From NCBI GenBank assembly GCA_048882485.1, contig JBHLRP010000001.1, positions 160,001 through 224,000 of the forward strand: a stretch of DNA of 64,000 nt. Direction: 5' to 3'. Under the pieces are notes generated by a model, which saw only the letters and a program-made list of their open reading frames with translations, was not told the origin of the DNA and did no database searches. Within the stretch, counting starts at the first letter, position 1; the number at the start of each line of letters is the position of its first letter. This DNA is from Candidatus Thorarchaeota archaeon. Lineage in GTDB: Archaea > Asgardarchaeota > Thorarchaeia > Thorarchaeales > Thorarchaeaceae. A program made the translations under genes and the position numbers. Positions 39,448 through 49,065 of this stretch are shown here, in pieces.

Positions 39448-40482
39448 TCACTTCGCCCTATTTCGTCGTCTGGTGACAATGCCAAGTGCTATGAATCCAA
39501 CAATCACACTGAACCACAGCGTGACGAATCGGATGATGATGGTCGCCGCTCCGGTGATAGCTTGGCCAATTTCCCCAGTTAGACCGAGTAAAGCTGGAAT
39601 TAGAATGAGGGCGGTCGCCTCATACCCTCCTAGTCCACCTGGCGTAAAGACAAGAGCACCAATAACTGAGGCTGCACTATGAATGAAGGTGGAGATTAGA
39701 AGTAGGTTTAGAGAACTCGGCTCCAGTGAGGGAAATCCCGCTCCGGTGAGCAGGGACAATAAGAGCCAGAGCTCGACACATTCCATGAACCAGCCTGGAA
39801 TGCTGACTCCTGTACTGACCATCATTGGCTTTGGTGAAAGAGTTGAAGATAATGTGTCCTCAATAAGATCTGTACTGCTCTGGAATCGTTTTAGAGGACC
39901 AAACGATGTCATCTTTTTCAGGAATTTATTATAGAACCTAGGTTGACTCAGGAAAATGGCACCTACCAAGACAACTCCACCAAGAAGGATAAGGGTGAGG
40001 ATTTGATCTGCCGCTGATACACCCAGTGCGAATCCAACAAGGGCCAGTAGTATCATAGCAAGCAAATCAGTGACTCTCTCTGACACCACCACTGGGACTG
40101 TCTTTGCAATAGGTGTGCCATCGAGTTCGTTAATGAAATAGCCTTTGATGGCTTCACCGATTTTACCTGGACTCGCAGTAAGTGTGAAGCCCGCCAAGAA
40201 GATACTGAAACTGTCGGCATGAGAAAGGCTTACTCCGATTCTTCCCAAATAGTATTGCCACTTGAAATAGCGAAAGATGTAATTCAGAAAAGATAACACC
40301 ATCATCGCTGGGAATACCCACCACCATTCGATTGTAGCAATAGCTGCGGCCACCTCATCATATTTGCTGTAGAAGAAAATAGCAAGATAGATGATGATAG
40401 CAACCATCACGAAAACCACGAGGTGCCGAAGATTGATGAAGGACGACTCTTTTTGCTGGCTTGCCTCATTGTTCTCGATCAT
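39448..40482 (-). CDS. Lysylphosphatidylglycerol synthase TM-domain / UPF0104 flippase-like membrane protein
   Basis: FRYFKWQYYL, SPGKIGEAIK, ERVTDL, TPGGLGGYEA and IRFVTLW motifs; about 8 TM helices; ATG 40482 overlaps the PHP stop (ATGA). Confidence 0.85.
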   Translation of the reverse strand: MIENNEASQQKESSFINLRHLVVFVMVAIIIYLAIFFYSKYDEVAAAIATIEWWWVFPAMMVLSFLNYIFRYFKWQYYLGRIGVSLSHADSFSIFLAGFTLTASPGKIGEAIKGYFINELDGTPIAKTVPVVVSERVTDLLAMILLALVGFALGVSAADQILTLILLGGVVLVGAIFLSQPRFYNKFLKKMTSFGPLKRFQSSTDLIEDTLSSTLSPKPMMVSTGVSIPGWFMECVELWLLLSLLTGAGFPSLEPSSLNLLLISTFIHSAASVIGALVFTPGGLGGYEATALILIPALLGLTGEIGQAITGAATIIIRFVTLWFSVIVGFIALGIVTRRRNRAK

Positions 40483-41159
40483 GGTGGCCACTTCCTCAGC
40501 CTCTGCCATATGAAACCAGGAATATGAACATAGAAGAAAGATACATGCCCTGTGATCTGAGTCCTCCCCCTACGAAGCTCCTCATAGATGTCGTCAGCAG
40601 TCTCTATGTCCTGCAGCCAAGTTTTGCCATGGCCTACTTCTCTACCAAAATGCCCGTCACTTCCAGCTGTCATTGGTTTGCCAAGCCGCCTAGCCAGACG
40701 CTGAGCTTTTGTGTTGTGGATGGGGAGAAGACAACGGGAATTTATGCCCTCAATGAGATCCACATGCTCGCTGATTAGGTCCTCAGGGAGCATCTTTCGA
40801 ACAGCAGTTTGCTTCCGAAAGGGATCCTTTGGATGAGGCAGAATTGTCAGAGCGTTCTGATCGTGGATGTCATCTGCTATTTCTTCAAACGTTCGATTCT
40901 CAATCGGTTCAGTGACGAACAGACCAATCAGCTCGCCGTGGTCAGAGGATTTGTACTCACAACCGTTGATGAGAAACTTATCATTCCTGACAATAGGCTT
41001 GAAGATGGACGGCTGCCAATGCTCAGTAAGTGCCATGCCCCTTAGCCCTTTCTTCCTCATCAGCTTGAACAGATTCGCCGGCCTATTCAACCCATCCTTC
41101 GAGAATAGGGTGTGCGTATGAAGGTCAAAGGCTGAGAGGCGCGTGCTCATCTGCAACAC
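40479..41159 (-). CDS. PHP-domain metal-dependent phosphoesterase
   Basis: DLHTHTLFSKDG, ALTEH, GCE, PHP and AGSDGH metal-ligand motifs. Confidence 0.9.
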   Translation of the reverse strand: MLQMSTRLSAFDLHTHTLFSKDGLNRPANLFKLMRKKGLRGMALTEHWQPSIFKPIVRNDKFLINGCEYKSSDHGELIGLFVTEPIENRTFEEIADDIHDQNALTILPHPKDPFRKQTAVRKMLPEDLISEHVDLIEGINSRCLLPIHNTKAQRLARRLGKPMTAGSDGHFGREVGHGKTWLQDIETADDIYEELRRGRTQITGHVSFFYVHIPGFIWQRLRKWPP

Positions 41160-42155
41160 CTATGGAAGCGCTTCAGGGGGCGGGAAAATAACCTGAATGA
41201 ATTCGAATACAGGCTGCCAGAAGAACATCGTGAATAGTAATGTTCCAAGGAAAATTATGCTTCCGACAAGAATCCCCAGGTCTTTGAAGGCTAGATGTGG
41301 CTTTCGGCCCACTGGACTTCCTGATTGGATGAGGTACACATATCTCATTATAAGTCCTGCAGCTATTGGAACTGTCATCATGACAGGCTGAGCGACTGGG
41401 TTTGGAAAGTTATTGTATACATAGAGCGCGTAGAAGAGCACAAACCAAGTGGCTGACATAGTAATTCCTTGGTCCAGCATTCTGTCCGTATACTGATCAA
41501 ACACCTCTTTGTGAGCCTCAGCATCTTCACCTAGGAGTTGTAACTCGTTCTTTCGCTTCCCGAATCCCAGAATCAGTGCGAAGAAGAATATACCCACTAC
41601 CAGCCAGGATGTGAATGGAACGCCGATGAGAAAAGTGCCTCCAATTGCTCTGAGGATGAATCCCACTGCGAGGATGACTACATCAACAACAGCCCATTGG
41701 CGAAGGAAGTGGTTGTATAGTTGAGCATTGACAATATACAGGATGACAATGAGTAGGAAGAGACCTCCCACAGCTCCCACTCGATAATACGCTCCGAGCA
41801 TTCCTACACCATAGTATGACAACAAGAGCCCTGCAGCCATGAGGACAGCAGCCAGAATATAGGCTGTCCTCTTCGATGCCCCGCCAGAAGGAAGGGGGCG
41901 ATTCTTTTTCTCAGGATGGGCTGAGTCCTTTTCCATGTCTGAAATGTCATTAATGATGTATCCCGCACTTGATACAAAGCAAAGTGCAACGAATCCAAGA
42001 ATAAGTAGGGGATAGTTCGCCCAGTCGAATATTGCTGGTAGCTTCTCCCATGGCCATTGCTGTGGAATCTCCACGAAAATCACTGCAATGAAGACAAGCA
42101 AGTTCTTGTACCACTGCCATGGGCGCATTAATTTGATGTAGTCCTTAGCTGCCAT
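41160..42155 (-). CDS. UbiA-family polyprenyl-phosphate phosphoribosyltransferase (DPPR synthase-like)
   Basis: MRPWQWYKNLLVF, YIINDISD.EKD..HPEKKNRPLPSG, GFILRAIGG and GKRKNEL motifs, characteristic of the Rv3806c-like UbiA subfamily. Confidence 0.85.
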   Translation of the reverse strand: MAAKDYIKLMRPWQWYKNLLVFIAVIFVEIPQQWPWEKLPAIFDWANYPLLILGFVALCFVSSAGYIINDISDMEKDSAHPEKKNRPLPSGGASKRTAYILAAVLMAAGLLLSYYGVGMLGAYYRVGAVGGLFLLIVILYIVNAQLYNHFLRQWAVVDVVILAVGFILRAIGGTFLIGVPFTSWLVVGIFFFALILGFGKRKNELQLLGEDAEAHKEVFDQYTDRMLDQGITMSATWFVLFYALYVYNNFPNPVAQPVMMTVPIAAGLIMRYVYLIQSGSPVGRKPHLAFKDLGILVGSIIFLGTLLFTMFFWQPVFEFIQVIFPPPEALP

Positions 42156-42170
42156 TTCTGATCCTCCATC

Positions 42171-43250
42171 CTATTCTGAATATGATTTCCAAAGTTCTCC
42201 CCATTCGGTTTCCTCAAGGAACCAGTTTACCCATTTCTTGCCCTTTAGTGGAAGCCAGATGCCATCATGATACAGTCCGGAGAGCTGTGTGGGAAGCCAC
42301 ATTAGGGGCGAGCGGAAAAGGAATTGCTCCATGCCCGGAAATCGTAGGAATCCTCTATTCCAAGCGATTACTGGCGATTTGCCTGGACTCATATGGAAAT
42401 TGGGCAAATCCTTCCATGACTCGTAGTCACCAACAATCTCAATGTCCTCAGGATCTGCGCTCCCCAGTCCTAGGCTGTCAGCAATCTGAAGCTTATGAAC
42501 ACAATTTAGATCTAATCCCATGATTCTGGATTGTACCGTATCAGCAGCTACCATGTCGTTTGTAGCGATTAGCAGATTCCCAATCTTTGGAATCATTGTT
42601 CGTGGTCCTGCCCCGTCCCCCATGACAGTCCCATCAGTAAGAACAAACTCAGAGTTGGAGATCGTCTGCTGAAGCAAAAGCAGATCAACCAGCACCTCAT
42701 GGATCTTGAGATGGGCAAGGTGTCTCTTTTTGGTCAAATAAAGCCCAAATGAGTCCTTGAGAGCCCCTGTCATCTGAGTATGCCCATGAGTCTTCACAGT
42801 TGGAAGATGAATAATGTTGGTCCCAAAGATTTCTTTCGGAGCGATTATCTCACCAAAGACATCCTCAAGAACTAGGGTCTTCTGAGGGAGCTTCACGTCA
42901 ACATAGGTTGCCTCAATGAGTGGGAGGAACTTGATTCGATGTTTCTTTATCACAGGATACCAGTTATTCCCCCTAGTGCCAGCATAAATGTTTGTGACAA
43001 CGGTTTCATTCTCGACCGCTTGAATGTTGCGCGGTGAATAGCCATCGGCTATCATTTTTCTCAGAAGGCCATCGAATACATAGGGATTAGTTGAGCAGGC
43101 AGGATAGAACTTTGACCAAGATAGATTGAGCTTGATGGTAGTTGCGACATTCTTTGAAACATGTTTCTGATATTCAGCCTCATCGAGGAGGCGACCAATG
43201 TCGTCAAAGATTGTCTTTGGAGTGGTGTTTACAACAGCTACCTTGGGCAT
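42171..43250 (-). CDS. DUF362 domain protein
   Basis: TIKLNLSW...STNP, IHLPTVKTHGHTQMTGALKDSFG, DG...GAGP and DMVAADTV; no fused ferredoxin domain. Confidence 0.85.
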   Translation of the reverse strand: MPKVAVVNTTPKTIFDDIGRLLDEAEYQKHVSKNVATTIKLNLSWSKFYPACSTNPYVFDGLLRKMIADGYSPRNIQAVENETVVTNIYAGTRGNNWYPVIKKHRIKFLPLIEATYVDVKLPQKTLVLEDVFGEIIAPKEIFGTNIIHLPTVKTHGHTQMTGALKDSFGLYLTKKRHLAHLKIHEVLVDLLLLQQTISNSEFVLTDGTVMGDGAGPRTMIPKIGNLLIATNDMVAADTVQSRIMGLDLNCVHKLQIADSLGLGSADPEDIEIVGDYESWKDLPNFHMSPGKSPVIAWNRGFLRFPGMEQFLFRSPLMWLPTQLSGLYHDGIWLPLKGKKWVNWFLEETEWGELWKSYSE

Positions 43251-43616: not shown

Positions 43617-44531
43617 TCATTGGCCCGCGTCAATCCCTACTTGTATCACATCTGTCTTCAATCTGTCCTTGAGATGCACAATCTTTGGCTTCACTCGGTT
43701 GTTATATGACGCACTGAACACACTGACTAATTTTCCATCAAAGAACGTCTGAACGCCATCTGGAAAAACTTGGTGCGCTCTGAACATCAAAGCGAGGTCC
43801 AAGGATTCAGCAAATTCATTGAATGCTAGCCGCCCATAGATCCTTGAGCCGCCTCCCCTCCAATTGGGACTGAATCTGAAATCCCCCTCCGCTGGGTCGT
43901 TCCATGTCAATTGGAGCGCAATTGGGTCTTGGAAATCTTCATGGAATCGGTCTACTCTTTGAATCTGCTCAAGCGTATCTACTCCTTCTGGTATTCCTCC
44001 ATGACAGGAGAACACGCCGTTAGAACTCAAGCCTCCCAATGGTAGCACCTTGAATCCTGAGCAATAGATATCAAATACATCTGGTGAGTACCTGGCTGTC
44101 ACCGCATTGTAGAATCCATATGACCTGGCGATACTGTTGGCCTCATGATTGCCCCTTAATGCCATCACTCTGTATGGATATTCAATTGCCACCGAAAACA
44201 CAAGATTGACAGTTTCGATTTGTTGTGGTCCCCTATCCGCATAGTCACCAAGAAATACCATTGTTGCATCCTTACGATTCTGTACAAGTTGTTGAGCAAC
44301 CAGAGCGCTTTGAAGCTCTCCATGCAGATCACCAACGTAGTAAACGTCTCTTCGTGGTGTTTCGACAATATTAGGGAACCCCCTATATTGATCACTCAAG
44401 GTTCCAACCAACTGCTCTATTTCCTCTGCAGTGAGGTCAACTTTACCCTCTAGGACTCGCTTTGCAAGATGCATCTCAAATAAATACTCATGAGGTGTCC
44501 TAAAGAACTTGGCTCTTGGCGCTAATCCCAC
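43617..44531 (-). CDS. Ser/Thr protein phosphatase, PPP family (metallophosphoesterase)
   Basis: GDLHG, GDYADRG, LRGNHE, CHGG, WNDP, RAHQ and VFSASY; alternative start ATG 44474. Confidence 0.92.
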   Translation of the reverse strand: MGLAPRAKFFRTPHEYLFEMHLAKRVLEGKVDLTAEEIEQLVGTLSDQYRGFPNIVETPRRDVYYVGDLHGELQSALVAQQLVQNRKDATMVFLGDYADRGPQQIETVNLVFSVAIEYPYRVMALRGNHEANSIARSYGFYNAVTARYSPDVFDIYCSGFKVLPLGGLSSNGVFSCHGGIPEGVDTLEQIQRVDRFHEDFQDPIALQLTWNDPAEGDFRFSPNWRGGGSRIYGRLAFNEFAESLDLALMFRAHQVFPDGVQTFFDGKLVSVFSASYNNRVKPKIVHLKDRLKTDVIQVGIDAGQ

Positions 44532-45022
44532 CCCAGGGCATTGAATGCCTTTTCAACAGCATCTTGTGGAGATTCAGCGGGCAGGACCACATCATCCCTT
44601 CTCTCATCTATCTTTGTTCCAGCCAAGCGCTTTGCCCATCCGCCTGACGGCACTAGTGCAATGACTGGTCTGTCAGAAAACCAAGCAATTGCCATCTCGC
44701 TCAATGTTCCAGCGGATCCTGCAATTGCTATAACCGCATCCCCTGTCTTGGCAACCAAGAAGTTCCTAGCATATCCCATTCCCGTGGGAACAGCAATGTC
44801 CACATACTTGTTGGCATGTTCTTTGAAGTCAGTAGGAAGAATTCCAATGGTAGTGCCTCCATGCCTCTTTGCTCCTCTGCAAGCGGCTTCCATCACGCCA
44901 CCTAGTCCACCGCAGACAACAGCGGCACCACGTTTTGCTATCTCTTCACCTACCGCTTCAGCTAAGTCTAGGACACTCTCATCGCTATCGGATCCACCTA
45001 TCACGGAAATACTCCTTATCAT
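44522..45022 (-). CDS. TIGR00725 / LOG-family Rossmann-fold nucleotide-binding protein
   Basis: ISVIGG, VCGGLGGVMEAACRGAK..GG.TIGILP, TGMGYARN and GSAGTLSEMA. Likely start ATG 45022 (ORF track 45127 overlaps the upstream gene). Confidence 0.9.
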   Translation of the reverse strand: MIRSISVIGGSDSDESVLDLAEAVGEEIAKRGAAVVCGGLGGVMEAACRGAKRHGGTTIGILPTDFKEHANKYVDIAVPTGMGYARNFLVAKTGDAVIAIAGSAGTLSEMAIAWFSDRPVIALVPSGGWAKRLAGTKIDERRDDVVLPAESPQDAVEKAFNALGWD

Positions 45023-45032
45023 AGGATTCACA

Positions 45033-46154
45033 CTACTGGTCTTGTTCTTGAGATTGAATTCTTCTAGCAATAGACTCGTAATCAATCTCGGAAAGCCTGC
45101 CGTCTTGCAATCTACGGTTGGCTTCATCCAGTAGTGTCCAGGAAACTCCCTTCTTGATATATCCTAGCCTCGTGAGTCTTTCCTCAAGGAGTGGCTTGCT
45201 GCTCAGGTCATGGGGCAGGTCAATTTTTGAACATCTTGATGCTCGGTATAGCTGCTTCTCAACGTGGTCTGGAATCTCTCGAGTTGCTAGTGCGTAGATT
45301 TTGGCCAAGGTCAATAACGCTCTTGTACTAAGGTCTTCTGATGACCATCCTGCATCTGTTCCTACTATGCAGATCTTCGACCTCCGCACGCATTTCTTGA
45401 GACAATACTGGCATATCACTGGTTCAAGAATGGCATCTCCCATTGAAAGCTCAATCCTCATAGTTCCTTCATCAAGTTCCAAGATACAATGTGTACTTGT
45501 TGAGCTGATACCAAATGCCTCCGCGTTCTTCTTGATTATCATTATCTCTTCATTCGAATTCGGAGGCAATTGATTAGGACTGGAAATCGGTTGCTGTGCG
45601 GGACATGCATCTTCAGTCAATAGTGCTACGAACGGGAGGTTTCTATTGGAATCGCCACTTCGCAGCATCGAAGCCAGAGAGCCTATGGTTTCTCCAACGC
45701 TTTCCAAATGGCGAATTAGGGGCTGAACTCCCATTACATTTGCAATGTGCTTAACCGCCTCTTCAGTTCCTTGACTGTTTCCTACAATGACCACAATCAG
45801 GAATGCTCTAGACTTCTCAGTGAGAGTCCTATACAAATCAAGGAATGAGTCTGCTTCTTCCGGTCTTAACACAATTATCGCCCCCCTGTGCCCTCTCATG
45901 AATGTTTGAGTGAGGCCTGGAAACCTCTCCGTTATGGGCAATGCCCACAATTGGAGTACAGCTTCTCCACCATCGTCTAGCCTACTCCTAGATACTCCAA
46001 TGCCTACTCCAACTGTGGAGTGCAGCTGATATGCTACGACACCTTCCGAAGCAATATTGAGAAATCCTGTTTGCAGAGCGGAATTCACTCCAAGAACCAA
46101 AGCCTTGTACATGACCCTGGCTCCGTCAGGGATTTCTTCTGAAGGACGATACAC
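45033..46154 (-). CDS. Degenerate Rab-like small GTPase domain fused to a Cys-rich domain
   Basis: YKALVLG...STVGVG...VLQLW.....ERFPGLTQTFMRGHRGAIIV follows the Rab consensus, but G1 and G3 are substituted; C-terminal CQYCLKKC...C. Confidence 0.65.
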   Translation of the reverse strand: MYRPSEEIPDGARVMYKALVLGVNSALQTGFLNIASEGVVAYQLHSTVGVGIGVSRSRLDDGGEAVLQLWALPITERFPGLTQTFMRGHRGAIIVLRPEEADSFLDLYRTLTEKSRAFLIVVIVGNSQGTEEAVKHIANVMGVQPLIRHLESVGETIGSLASMLRSGDSNRNLPFVALLTEDACPAQQPISSPNQLPPNSNEEIMIIKKNAEAFGISSTSTHCILELDEGTMRIELSMGDAILEPVICQYCLKKCVRRSKICIVGTDAGWSSEDLSTRALLTLAKIYALATREIPDHVEKQLYRASRCSKIDLPHDLSSKPLLEERLTRLGYIKKGVSWTLLDEANRRLQDGRLSEIDYESIARRIQSQEQDQ

Positions 46155-46449
46155 GGGTTCTCCTTCTCATAGACGAAAAAATAGCTATGGGTCATGGATG
46201 TCATGCTTGTAGGTGGCTAAATACGCTCAAACGTAACAGGAAAGTGAGTCCCAAGGTTTAGGAGATGGAATCTTGCGAAGCTCACGGTTCAACAGGCGTT
46301 ATCTGAAGAAATCAAGTCAGATGCCTATGCGGCAATATGCAGATTTTCCAAGGGTAATTCCGCAGAGCATGATATACAAGAAAGATGCCTGAGTTTCATG
46401 CAATAGGATAACCTTATTCAGCCGAATCATTACTTTCTCCCTGATTAGG

Positions 46450-46814: not shown

Positions 46815-47225
46815 CTAGTAGTCTTCTTCCTCATAATCCCTGAACATCATATCTAGGCGGTCCCTTCTTGCGGGATTGCGTGATTCAGGAAAAGACCTCT
46901 TGAGAATGCCATCAAGCTCCCTCCAGTCCTCCTGCCGTTTCTTCCTACCATACACACCTGCCAGAGTAATCACAATATATGATATGGCGCCCACGATGTA
47001 GAGATCCGTCCTTGAATCAAAGATCGATGACATTATTGCCATCGCAAGCACGGCGATACCCCCCACAATCATTGTGTTGATGAAGCAGTCGCATCTTAAT
47101 TCCATTTCCGGAGGTCCAATAAGGAAATCATCAGGGTCCGATCCAGGAGCACGATTGAGGATATAATTGAACCAAGAAGCAAACAGCACTCCACCAAGAA
47201 TGCCTAACGCTACGACTGGGTTCAC
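46815..47225 (-). CDS. Hypothetical membrane protein
   Basis: Three hydrophobic helices and a charged tail; lies 25 bp downstream of the PIN gene on the same strand. Confidence 0.7.
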   Translation of the reverse strand: MNPVVALGILGGVLFASWFNYILNRAPGSDPDDFLIGPPEMELRCDCFINTMIVGGIAVLAMAIMSSIFDSRTDLYIVGAISYIVITLAGVYGRKKRQEDWRELDGILKRSFPESRNPARRDRLDMMFRDYEEEDY

Positions 47226-47250: not shown

Positions 47251-49065
47251 TTATATTTCAGGTTCAGGTTCTGCGATTTTGAGCCAGCTGAAACCATACT
47301 CGCCTTCATAAGAAATCTCTGAATCATCGCCAGGAGTTATTATAAGCATAACAGAGTATTTGTCCACCACCTCTGGATCTGCATTCGCTAGGCTGAATTT
47401 CCCACCAATCAGCGCTACCTTGTGGCCTGTCTTCAAGTTTGCAAGCTCAGGATGTTTCATGATATCTATCCCGATTCTGACCTGAAGCTGCTCATTCCTA
47501 ACAACAAGTGTTGTATTGTCGCTTATTGTTTCCACTGATAAGACATCCATCCAACTGCAAACTTCATCGGGCAGCTCCTCCAAATCTACTGGCTCTTTTG
47601 TAGTCATATCTTCAATGGGCGGCAAATTGCCTTGAATCTCGTTCAGAATCGGAGTTATTTTTGATGTGTCCCAGCCCTTCTTCACAAACATCTTGAGCGC
47701 ATGCTCGGCAATCTTCTCCAAAGCTGGCTTGAATCTATCGTGCGATGAGGATGAGATCTTATAGAGCATAAGGAAGGATGCAAGAGCCCCTTCTTCCTTG
47801 CCATAAGCCACACCGACCTTATATGAAGTCACGACCAATTGCCAAGCATTATCGTGCTCATCAAATTGAATTGCATGTTTTGCGATATCACTCAACAAGG
47901 CAAGAGTTGCAGATGGATATTGGAGCTTGCTCTTTGTGAGAGAGAAGCCACCCATGAACTCTCTCAAGACCTGCATGATGACGTATAGGCCTTCTGAGGT
48001 CTCAATCATATCCTCGAGTCCCACCCTTCGAATCATTGAGTCGTAAAGGGAGTAATAGTAGTCAATCTCTTCGTAGTCCTCACGGATCATTGCTAGAACA
48101 ATGCGAACAAAGAACACGCTTGCTTTGAGTTCATCATTGGACACCCCAGCGAACATTAGGAGCCTGAATGCCTCATCGGAGATGACCAATGCCTCTTCAA
48201 TGCCCTCCCTGGTTCCACGATAAAGGTGACAAATCATTTCCAAGTAATAGAGAAACAGCGTCAAGTCCGATGCATGTTGAACAAGCTTCGAATGAGTGTC
48301 TGAATCGTTGGTGAGTGTGGAAACTATGAGTAGTCGTTCAATCTCGTTTTGAATGGCTTCGATCTCAAGGGCTAGTGTGTTATACTTGCCATTTCTGAAG
48401 TCCTCAAACATCGTGGGAATTCCTGCTTTGATGTCTTCGAGGAAATCAAGAATAAAGAGCGGCTGTCCCCTTGAAAGCTGCCTATCCAACCCTTCTGCAG
48501 GTGCCTTGACTGCCCTAAGTACTCGGAGCGCATGTTCCTCTATGAGTCTAATTCTTGTGACGGGATCATAGGCCTCTTGGCGCGAGATACTATATCTCAC
48601 TTCCTCGCCATAGATTCTCTCACGCAGCACTGATAGCTTATTCTTTAGTCCCTCATCATCAATGGATTCCATGAGCTCAAGAACAAACGCCGAACCAACT
48701 ATTCCTTCCACGTCCACCTGGATGTCTTGAATGGTATTGAGTAGCTTCAGGTCACTAGTGACAATCTTAGACTTCTTGACCCTCATTGCCCCAAGAATGA
48801 GGGACATGTCATTGTGCTGAGGAAGAGAACTCTCAGGCTTATTGATACTCTCCATCAGTTCCTTGATGTCCTTTGTGAGGGTTTCATCAATCTGGACTAC
48901 TTGCTCTGCCTCCCTTCTCAGGTACCATCTGAGTTCCTGAAAAACCTGGCGAGTGACCCAGAGTTCCATTCCTGCCCTTTTGGCTGCCTCCTTCACTATG
49001 AAGACATCTTTCGGTCGGTTGCTGAAACCGCTGATGAAGAAGTTTGCATCTAGATATACGCGCAT
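47251..49065 (-). CDS. PIN-domain protein with long helical region
   Basis: N-terminal VYLDANFFI, VFQEL, NDMSLI and IVTSDLKL give the four acidic PIN residues; followed by a helical-repeat-like region and a beta-rich C-terminus. Confidence 0.75.
   Translation of the reverse strand: MRVYLDANFFISGFSNRPKDVFIVKEAAKRAGMELWVTRQVFQELRWYLRREAEQVVQIDETLTKDIKELMESINKPESSLPQHNDMSLILGAMRVKKSKIVTSDLKLLNTIQDIQVDVEGIVGSAFVLELMESIDDEGLKNKLSVLRERIYGEEVRYSISRQEAYDPVTRIRLIEEHALRVLRAVKAPAEGLDRQLSRGQPLFILDFLEDIKAGIPTMFEDFRNGKYNTLALEIEAIQNEIERLLIVSTLTNDSDTHSKLVQHASDLTLFLYYLEMICHLYRGTREGIEEALVISDEAFRLLMFAGVSNDELKASVFFVRIVLAMIREDYEEIDYYYSLYDSMIRRVGLEDMIETSEGLYVIMQVLREFMGGFSLTKSKLQYPSATLALLSDIAKHAIQFDEHDNAWQLVVTSYKVGVAYGKEEGALASFLMLYKISSSSHDRFKPALEKIAEHALKMFVKKGWDTSKITPILNEIQGNLPPIEDMTTKEPVDLEELPDEVCSWMDVLSVETISDNTTLVVRNEQLQVRIGIDIMKHPELANLKTGHKVALIGGKFSLANADPEVVDKYSVMLIITPGDDSEISYEGEYGFSWLKIAEPEPEI

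Follow-up and report, generated by a model that had tools for sequence, protein, structure and literature searches.

The window analysed here is a stretch of 64,000 nt from Candidatus Thorarchaeota archaeon (GCA_048882485.1, contig JBHLRP010000001.1, positions 160,001–224,000); coordinates are relative to it, and all features located below by coordinates lie on the reverse strand (−). At 45033–46154 it holds a gene (P0001, hereafter the target) for a Rab-like G domain with degenerate GTP-binding motifs, followed by a cysteine-rich C-terminal half. An earlier note, made from the letters of this DNA, had proposed a nucleotide-independent Rab mimic in an intact reading frame. The frame is indeed intact: the open reading frame (ORF) spans 373 open codons, encodes 373 amino acids (aa) before a TAG stop and begins with a GTG codon at 46154, and a Shine-Dalgarno-like AAGGAG (46160–46165) is read in the sequence 5 nt upstream of that GTG. 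The strings quoted in the note (KALVLG, GVNSALQT, STVGV, LQLW-ALPI, ERFPGLTQTFMRG, GAIIV, GNSQG and CQYCLKKCVRRSKIC) were all located in the translation, which lacks a prenylatable C-terminal cysteine and terminates in RIQSQEQDQ. In a set of 5.8 billion proteins, approximately 47 near-full-length relatives with equivalent start and end positions were found at 32–100% identity, and intact ORFs of about 360–380 aa occur in more than 50 genomes of several genera.

The target is the first cistron of an operon that continues with a SLOG cluster-4/TIGR00725 protein (SLOG4) and a PPP-type metallophosphatase (PPP). The SLOG4 gene (44522–45022, 166 aa) begins with an ATG 10 nt past the target stop, matches Pfam LDcluster4 with an E-value of 4e-44 and scores 152.6 bits against TIGR00725, for which the cut-off is 106.9. 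A longer SLOG ORF at 44522–45127 (201 aa, with a 95-nt overlap with the 3' end of the target) was rejected as an artefact of ORF extension, the orthologues of 164–173 aa starting at ATG 45022. The third gene (43617–44474) matches Pfam Metallophos (E 2.5e-22), contains the motifs GDLHG, GDYADRG and GNHE, and probably starts at ATG 44474, as judged by orthologue comparison. The order target, SLOG4, PPP was found in 17 of 17 orthologous loci with 32–100% identity, where the genes are separated by 10-nt gaps or have overlapping stop and start codons. Upstream of the target, a divergent cupin gene, the gene for a 136-aa membrane protein and that for a 604-aa PIN-like protein are all equally syntenic. 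Identity at the locus amounts to 35% for the target, 47% for PPP and 73% for SLOG4, making the target the fastest-evolving gene; SLOG4 itself is near-universal, being present in 301 of 400 sampled genomes of the phylum.

The N-terminal 175 residues of the target retain the Rab G-domain fold. Alone, the target sequence scored 19.8 bits against Pfam Ras (PF00071) in hmmscan (cut-off 21.6, E 6e-4), covering profile positions 14–117 only, and in a six-frame scan of the genome it narrowly reached the cut-off, with 21.7 bits. Far stronger matches came from a profile of 23 orthologues, which hit solved structures of Rab3, Rab11, Ypt1, Sec4, Rab1, Rab8 and Rab35 with E-values of 1e-11 to 1e-8, and each of its best 60 matches (60/60) was a Rab-family chain. 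The AlphaFold2 (AF2) model of the target, based on an alignment of 82 sequences, had a mean predicted local distance difference test score (pLDDT) of 90.3, and a Foldseek search with this model returned at least 500 small-GTPase chains at E ≤ 1e-3, with Rab8, Rab1 and Rab11 on top, a best E-value of 1e-7 and target-normalised template modelling (TM) scores of about 0.60–0.66 among the leading rows. On account of the orthologue profile and the Foldseek matches, the resemblance to Rab proteins is far beyond chance. Family profile, AF2 model and Foldseek agree in placing the domain at aa 14–175 (45630–46115); a Rab-like G-domain fold is thus predicted with high confidence, and the lack of such a prediction, named in the earlier note as a refuting outcome, did not occur.

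Within this fold, the residues that would hold phosphate and Mg (the P-loop Gly and Lys, and DxxG) and those that would read the guanine base (NKxD and SAK) are substituted, and the substitutions are conserved. The G1 or P-loop remnant GVNSALQT (aa 22–29; 46068–46091) aligns to GNSSVGKT of Rab3C, with the second Gly replaced by Leu and the Lys by Gln. The segment of switch I and strand β2, LHSTVGVGIGV (aa 44–54; 45993–46025), is RabF1-like, with conservation of 90% or more at L44, G49, G53 and V54. At G3/switch II, the remnant WALPITER (aa 70–77; 45924–45947) has lost both the Asp and the Gly of DxxG and has conserved W70, P73 and R77, and at G4 the sequence GNSQG (aa 125–129; 45768–45782), within VGNSQGTE, stands where NKxD is expected; with LESV at G5, the SAK motif is lost as well as NKxD. 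The profile consensus tells the same story in a hidden Markov model alignment with Rab3C, reading G-a-d-l-a-L-q-t opposite G-N-S-S-V-G-K-T at G1, W-s-l-p-l-s-e-R opposite W-D-T-A-G-Q-E-R at G3, and v-g-s-v-r-e opposite V-G-N-K-C-D at G4. The earlier readings of the P-loop as GVNSALQT, of DxxG as ALPI and of NKxD as GNSQG were thus seen in both the translation and the Rab3C alignment.

The motif replacements are conserved across approximately 55 orthologues, and the patterns G-x-[DN]-x-x-L-Q-[TA]-G-[FY]-L and LQLW-x-[LI]-P-x-x-E-R as well as a G-H pair are common to orthologues down to about 30% identity. A motif census was carried out on 82 Asgard proteins carrying the target-type C-terminal domain, of which a single one (P0092) has an intact Walker A motif (GxxxxGK[ST]) and 15 keep the Lys only. 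The Gly of DxxG is kept in none of the 82 and the Asp in 18, while [NT]KxD at G4 and SAK at G5 were found in 0/82. The target genome has 35 Ras-family hits, among which the target is the second-weakest; the translations of 32 further Ras-family genes from it show GxxxxGK[ST] in 31, NKxD in all 32 and a DxxG-type match in 27.

The ratio of non-synonymous to synonymous substitution rates (dN/dS) was calculated according to Nei and Gojobori; of the eleven orthologous locus pairs used, a distant one was saturated at dS. In the ten unsaturated pairs, dN/dS was 0.07–0.19 overall, 0.08–0.27 for the G domain and 0.07–0.15 for the C-terminal half. The target gene is functional and maintained by selection, not decaying, and the degenerate G1, G3 and G4 are common to all orthologues and under purifying selection, as the orthologue check suggested in the earlier note had asked, an outcome that supports the interpretation given there. 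Conservation in the G domain is restricted to the face formed by the P-loop/helix 1, switch I and switch II. Mean entropy was 1.38 bits for strand 1, P-loop and helix 1, 1.57 bits for switch I and strand 2, and 1.61 bits for strand 3 and switch II, the three segments together containing 13 positions at ≥90% conservation; for aa 93–175, normally the half that reads the guanine base, it was 2.63 bits, with 0 of 83 positions at that level. The Rab face of the switch regions is the contact surface for effectors and exchange factors, and the constrained switch face of the target may now be a constitutive binding surface.

The C-terminal half is reached through a linker (aa 176–200; 45555–45629) with a conserved C184-P and PPNS and lower pLDDT, the lowest 10-residue block (aa 191–200) averaging 73. 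It is followed by the core of an undescribed alpha/beta domain (the C-domain, aa 201–310; 45225–45554) consisting of a helix, three to four strands and two helices, with a pLDDT of about 90 over aa ~201–310 and of 89 when modelled as a separate domain. The elements run in the order helix, three strands, short helix with C248 and C251, short strand ending at C262, loop G-T-D-A-G-W-S-S, two helices and C308. The CQYCLKKC...C string that had been reported downstream of the G domain is present as the cluster C248-x2-C251-x3-C255-x6-C262 (CQYCLKKCVRRSKIC, aa 248–262; 45369–45413), in which C248, C251 and C262 are shared by all 82 family members and C255 by at least 90% of them. The fourth invariant cysteine, C308 (45231–45233), is likewise found in all 82; within the orthologous group, conservation extends to C184 and C223. 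A three-helix tail of 63 residues (aa 311–373; 45036–45224) with a conserved LLxxAxxRxxxGxL belongs to the orthologous, operon-linked group only; the shorter distant paralogues terminate a few residues past the C308 equivalent, without it. The four target cysteines form a putative structural metal site, for which Zn is reasonable and an Fe-S cluster equally allowed. Selenocysteine was considered in view of in-frame TGA codons that fall inside the C-domain match in many homologues of family f22 and was rejected, these codons being the natural end of shorter proteins in the five loci read. The tail helix T-L-L-D-E-A-N-R-R-L (aa 341–373; 45036–45130) resembles L-F-D-E-A-N-N-M-V of the coiled coil of the Rab exchange factor Sec2, and Sec2 PDB sequences account for three of the four rows obtained with the C-domain profile, at non-significant E-values of 0.76–1.4. 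Should this resemblance prove genuine, the nucleotide-free G domain could be bound by the tail in the way that Sec4 is bound by Sec2.

No Pfam or NCBIfam family, zinc-finger families included, matched the C-domain, with the Pfam scan covering all 82 members, and PDB sequences likewise gave no zinc-finger match. The C-domain profile found nothing significant among PDB sequences (best E 0.75), Foldseek against the PDB gave a best E-value of 0.84, and an ESM Atlas shape search returned query TM scores of 0.33–0.42 with no row reaching 0.5, the feature search being without a usable hit. Proteins longer than 388 aa with a fused C-domain were not found either, which is weak evidence. Among the top 50 structural rows for the C-domain, approximately 20 have the UBC fold (Tsg101, Vps23 UEV, Atg3, Atg10, FANCL, E2s, RWD and the bacterial Cap2). 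Cys and Trp are spaced by seven residues both in the target segment K-I-C-IVGTDAG-W-S and in the Asgard E2 active site R-V-C-IGILGKD-W, and in hhalign of the C-domain against 11 Asgard E2s (E 0.22, probability 0.3%) only this Cys-to-Trp segment was paired. There is no HPN motif upstream of C262, where the CxxCxxxC knuckle sits, and the UBC-likeness is a lead, not a result. A canonical UQ_con (PF00179) E2 was found neither in the target genome nor in 12 genomes of the same genus. In other Asgard families, six of the eight genomes searched have two or three UQ_con E2s.

Among named database hits, the C-terminal half is an Asgard-restricted domain: all of these hits are Asgard, and those relatives of the target that have names come from Thorarchaeota, Sifarchaeia, Hodarchaeota or "Promethearchaeota" metagenome-assembled genomes. 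Of the 400 genomes of the phylum that were sampled, 161 gave a match to the C-domain profile; carriers cluster in a few families (52/85 in f1, 61/135 in f22, 11/12 in f13, 16/19 in f14 and 5/6 in f16), and f17 has up to six copies per genome; in the target genome, the same profile found no second gene of the family. For a quick maximum-likelihood tree, G domains were taken only from 40 family members and from 26 canonical GTPases encoded in the target genome. The tree recovered the orthologous group as a clade (99% in the Shimodaira–Hasegawa-like approximate likelihood ratio test) on a long stem of 1.6 changes per site and placed the P0092-like members nearest the canonical GTPases; a single origin of the fusion is compatible with this tree, the support for the split being only 58. 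The f22 paralogue is not adjacent to SLOG4, and the loci of the distant paralogues P0092, P0085 and P0088 have no neighbours in common with the target locus. The 595-aa and 137-aa neighbours of P0088 were considered as counterparts of the 604-aa and 136-aa genes of the window and proved unrelated.

In six Thor genomes of 92–99% completeness, the PIN-like, membrane-protein, cupin, SLOG4 and PPP genes are kept and there is no gene between cupin and SLOG4 (loci L034–L039, in genomes G389, G384, G392, G315, G349 and G340, compared with window 45033–46449), nor was a C-domain found elsewhere in these six genomes. Two of them belong to a genus in which 20 of 28 genomes have the gene. The target is therefore a dispensable add-on heading a widely conserved SLOG4–PPP pair, and the presence/absence polymorphism at this site implies repeated loss or lateral gain.

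Further genes surround the operon. The 604-aa protein (47251–49065) has a sub-threshold PIN_12 match at its N-terminus and no family assignment, and its identity across Thor genera is 66–81%, compared with just 35% for the target. The gene for the 136-aa membrane protein (46815–47225), which also has no family assignment, always follows the 604-aa gene, and the pair is kept in place even in genomes without the pseudo-GTPase gene. Directly downstream of PPP lies a cluster of DUF362, UbiA prenyltransferase, PHP phosphoesterase and LPG_synthase_TM genes (39448–43250), whose position is kept in two distant orthologous loci and which therefore extends the syntenic block to approximately 10 kb. A role in defence was considered and rejected: PADLOC reported nothing for the target, PPP, cupin, membrane or PIN-like proteins, and only weak SLOG-domain matches (PsyrA, ShosA) for the TIGR00725 protein.

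Taken together, we find it fairly probable that the G domain of the target no longer binds GTP and serves as a fixed docking module, that the cysteines hold a metal, and that the protein modulates or localises the SLOG–phosphatase pair. The G domain would be a class-i pseudo-GTPase, neither binding nor hydrolysing GTP, and its frozen switch face would serve as a constitutive protein-binding surface; protein binding is the role of known class-i pseudo-GTPase domains, the one in AAGAB among them (PMC12490416). The four cysteines would be the ligands of a structural metal, namely Zn or perhaps an Fe-S cluster. Instead of working as a molecular switch, the target would recruit or tune SLOG and the phosphatase in the role of a dispensable adaptor or regulatory subunit. 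Several points weigh against this reading. Nucleotide independence is predicted solely from motif loss, the P-loop lacking its Lys and Gly, DxxG its Asp and Gly, and NKxD being gone altogether, and it is gene order by itself that suggests contact of the target with SLOG4 or PPP; the metal site is putative, the invariant cysteines being what points to it. The operon works without the target gene in some genomes. In some distant family members the Lys of the P-loop and the Asp of switch II are still present, so that the ancestral form may have bound nucleotide, and the conserved replacement P-loop (L27, Q28, G30, F31 and L32) could line a pocket for another ligand. The predicted TM score of the AF2 model is 0.58, leaving the mutual arrangement of the two domains uncertain.

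The loss of every nucleotide-binding motif, the absence of the gene from some related genomes and its standing as the fastest-evolving gene at the locus could also be read as signs of a decaying GTPase pseudogene or of a chance Rab-like ORF. Such an origin is hardly credible, however, and is excluded by the selection and conservation data, as dN/dS is 0.07–0.19 in all ten unsaturated pairs, the ORF is intact at similar length in the many genomes mentioned above, the cysteines are invariant and the switch-face residues preserved, the AF2 model is confident at a pLDDT of 90, and a ribosome-binding site lies upstream. The high conservation of the replaced motif positions, which are among the most conserved in the protein and are not drifting, could instead mean that the G domain is still a ligand-controlled switch, in which a remodelled pocket (G-x-D-x-x-L-Q-T-G-F-L, LQLW-x-x-P and GH) binds another small molecule. 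A candidate ligand would be a nucleotide derivative that the co-encoded SLOG (LOG-like) enzyme produces or breaks down, with occupancy of the pocket controlling the PPP phosphatase. The strict operon linkage and the retention of the P-loop Lys and switch II Asp in distant paralogues speak for this possibility, as does the nature of SLOG proteins, which bind and process nucleotides and other ligands (PMC6459960). Nevertheless, it is unlikely: from established structural knowledge of P-loops, Leu at the position of the second Gly should fill the phosphate-binding cradle, the base-recognising half is unconstrained, with none of its 83 positions conserved, and no ligand is known.

Alternatively, the active part could be the C-domain, either as a divergent UBC/E2-like domain with a catalytic C262 in thioester or redox chemistry or as an Fe-S redox sensor, with the dead G domain serving as its scaffold. 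The arrangement K-I-C262-IVGTDAG-W270-S, helix, P295 mirrors V-C-x7-W-x-P, helix, PNP of E2 enzymes and covers the sole region aligned by hhalign, the missing canonical UQ_con E2s in the target genome and its 12 same-genus relatives would fit such a role, and an Fe-S cluster is plausible because the host is presumably an anaerobe. This reading is nonetheless doubtful, since the best Foldseek E-value is only 0.84, hhalign gave an E-value of 0.22 and a probability of 0.3%, the HPN motif is missing, and no E1, ubiquitin-like or JAB gene was seen within approximately 5–6 kb in the orthologous loci examined; moreover, a structural metal site explains four invariant cysteines more simply than a single catalytic cysteine does. 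A bolder proposal, which we hold to be rather improbable, would make the protein an Asgard signalling device that has discarded the Rab GTP switch and uses the switch face as a permanent dock, control having passed to the metal-stapled UBC/RWD-like cysteine domain, through redox or metal sensing or a covalent intermediate at C262, or to phosphorylation via PPP and the SLOG nucleotide enzyme. If true, the eukaryotic scaffolds in which a pseudo-GTPase is joined to an RWD/UEV domain would have an archaeal forerunner or analogue in a lineage (Thor) for which the search of 13 same-genus genomes yielded no canonical E2.

The motif loss suggests that among the closest archaeal relatives of eukaryotes, too, a GTPase switch has turned into a nucleotide-free scaffold. 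The pseudo-GTPases characterised so far are almost exclusively eukaryotic, and full-text searches of the open literature found neither a description of an archaeal pseudo-GTPase nor a paper describing the target family. Pseudo-GTPases as such are already known; it is the family that is new, and its partner domain may be a new fold or an unrecognisably divergent one. Current annotations of the family read "hypothetical protein" or, erroneously, "signal recognition particle receptor subunit beta", and a domain definition in the databases is deserved. The latter name is carried in JGI by several orthologues (P0006, P0009 and P0011) and is an over-transfer from weak G-domain similarity. The strict SLOG–PPP operon offers a tractable entry point to the function of the family, because neither TIGR00725 SLOG nor PPP proteins have, to our knowledge, a known role in archaea.

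Among known systems, the Rab GTPases (Rab1, Rab3, Rab8, Rab11, Ypt1, Sec4 and Thor-Rab, PDB 7EZB; PMC10933270) share the G-domain fold with the target and are its closest profile and structural matches, and the target keeps Rab scaffold motifs in the RabF-like VGVGIGV, LQLW..ER, RFPGLT and FMRG. In contrast to Rabs, G1, G3, G4 and G5 of the target are all non-canonical, and GTP binding is therefore not expected; the target also carries an additional 200-aa domain after the G domain and, unlike eukaryote-type Rabs, no C-terminal prenylation cysteine. The C-domain has its top, although weak, structural rows in the UBC-fold superfamily of E2, UEV and RWD domains (BRE/BRCC45 UEV 6gvw_C, Tsg101 UEV and Atg10), with which it has in common a helix, three to four antiparallel strands, a loop with a conserved Cys, two helices and the Cys-x7-Trp spacing.

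A G-domain fold with lost G motifs that is maintained by selection, as found for the target, is what defines a pseudo-GTPase in the Stiegler and Boggon classes (as cited in PMC12490416). The class-i pseudo-GTPases, represented by the AAGAB N-terminal domain, CENP-M and p190RhoGAP pG1/pG2 (PMC12490416, PMC5593906), have a small-GTPase fold without G motifs like the target, and they are conserved interaction modules rather than switches, often joined to a second domain that carries interactions. They are eukaryotic, however, and non-binding by experiment, whereas the target is archaeal and predicted to be non-binding from its motifs; it further differs from them in its cysteine-rich partner domain and its prokaryotic operon, and no sequence relationship was seen beyond the common fold. 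The theme of a Ras-superfamily G domain combined with a second regulatory domain is also found in the multidomain small GTPases of Asgard archaea (Tran et al. 2024, PMC10933270, Fig. 1f), where a G domain is joined to a roadblock, longin or "?" domain, the G plus "?" architectures being listed for a Lokiarchaeon. Those fusions pair an active-looking G domain with roadblock or longin, whereas the G domain of the target is degenerate and its partner is neither; and while GTPase genes of MK-D1 are generally located outside operons with regulators (PMC10933270), the target is strictly operonic.

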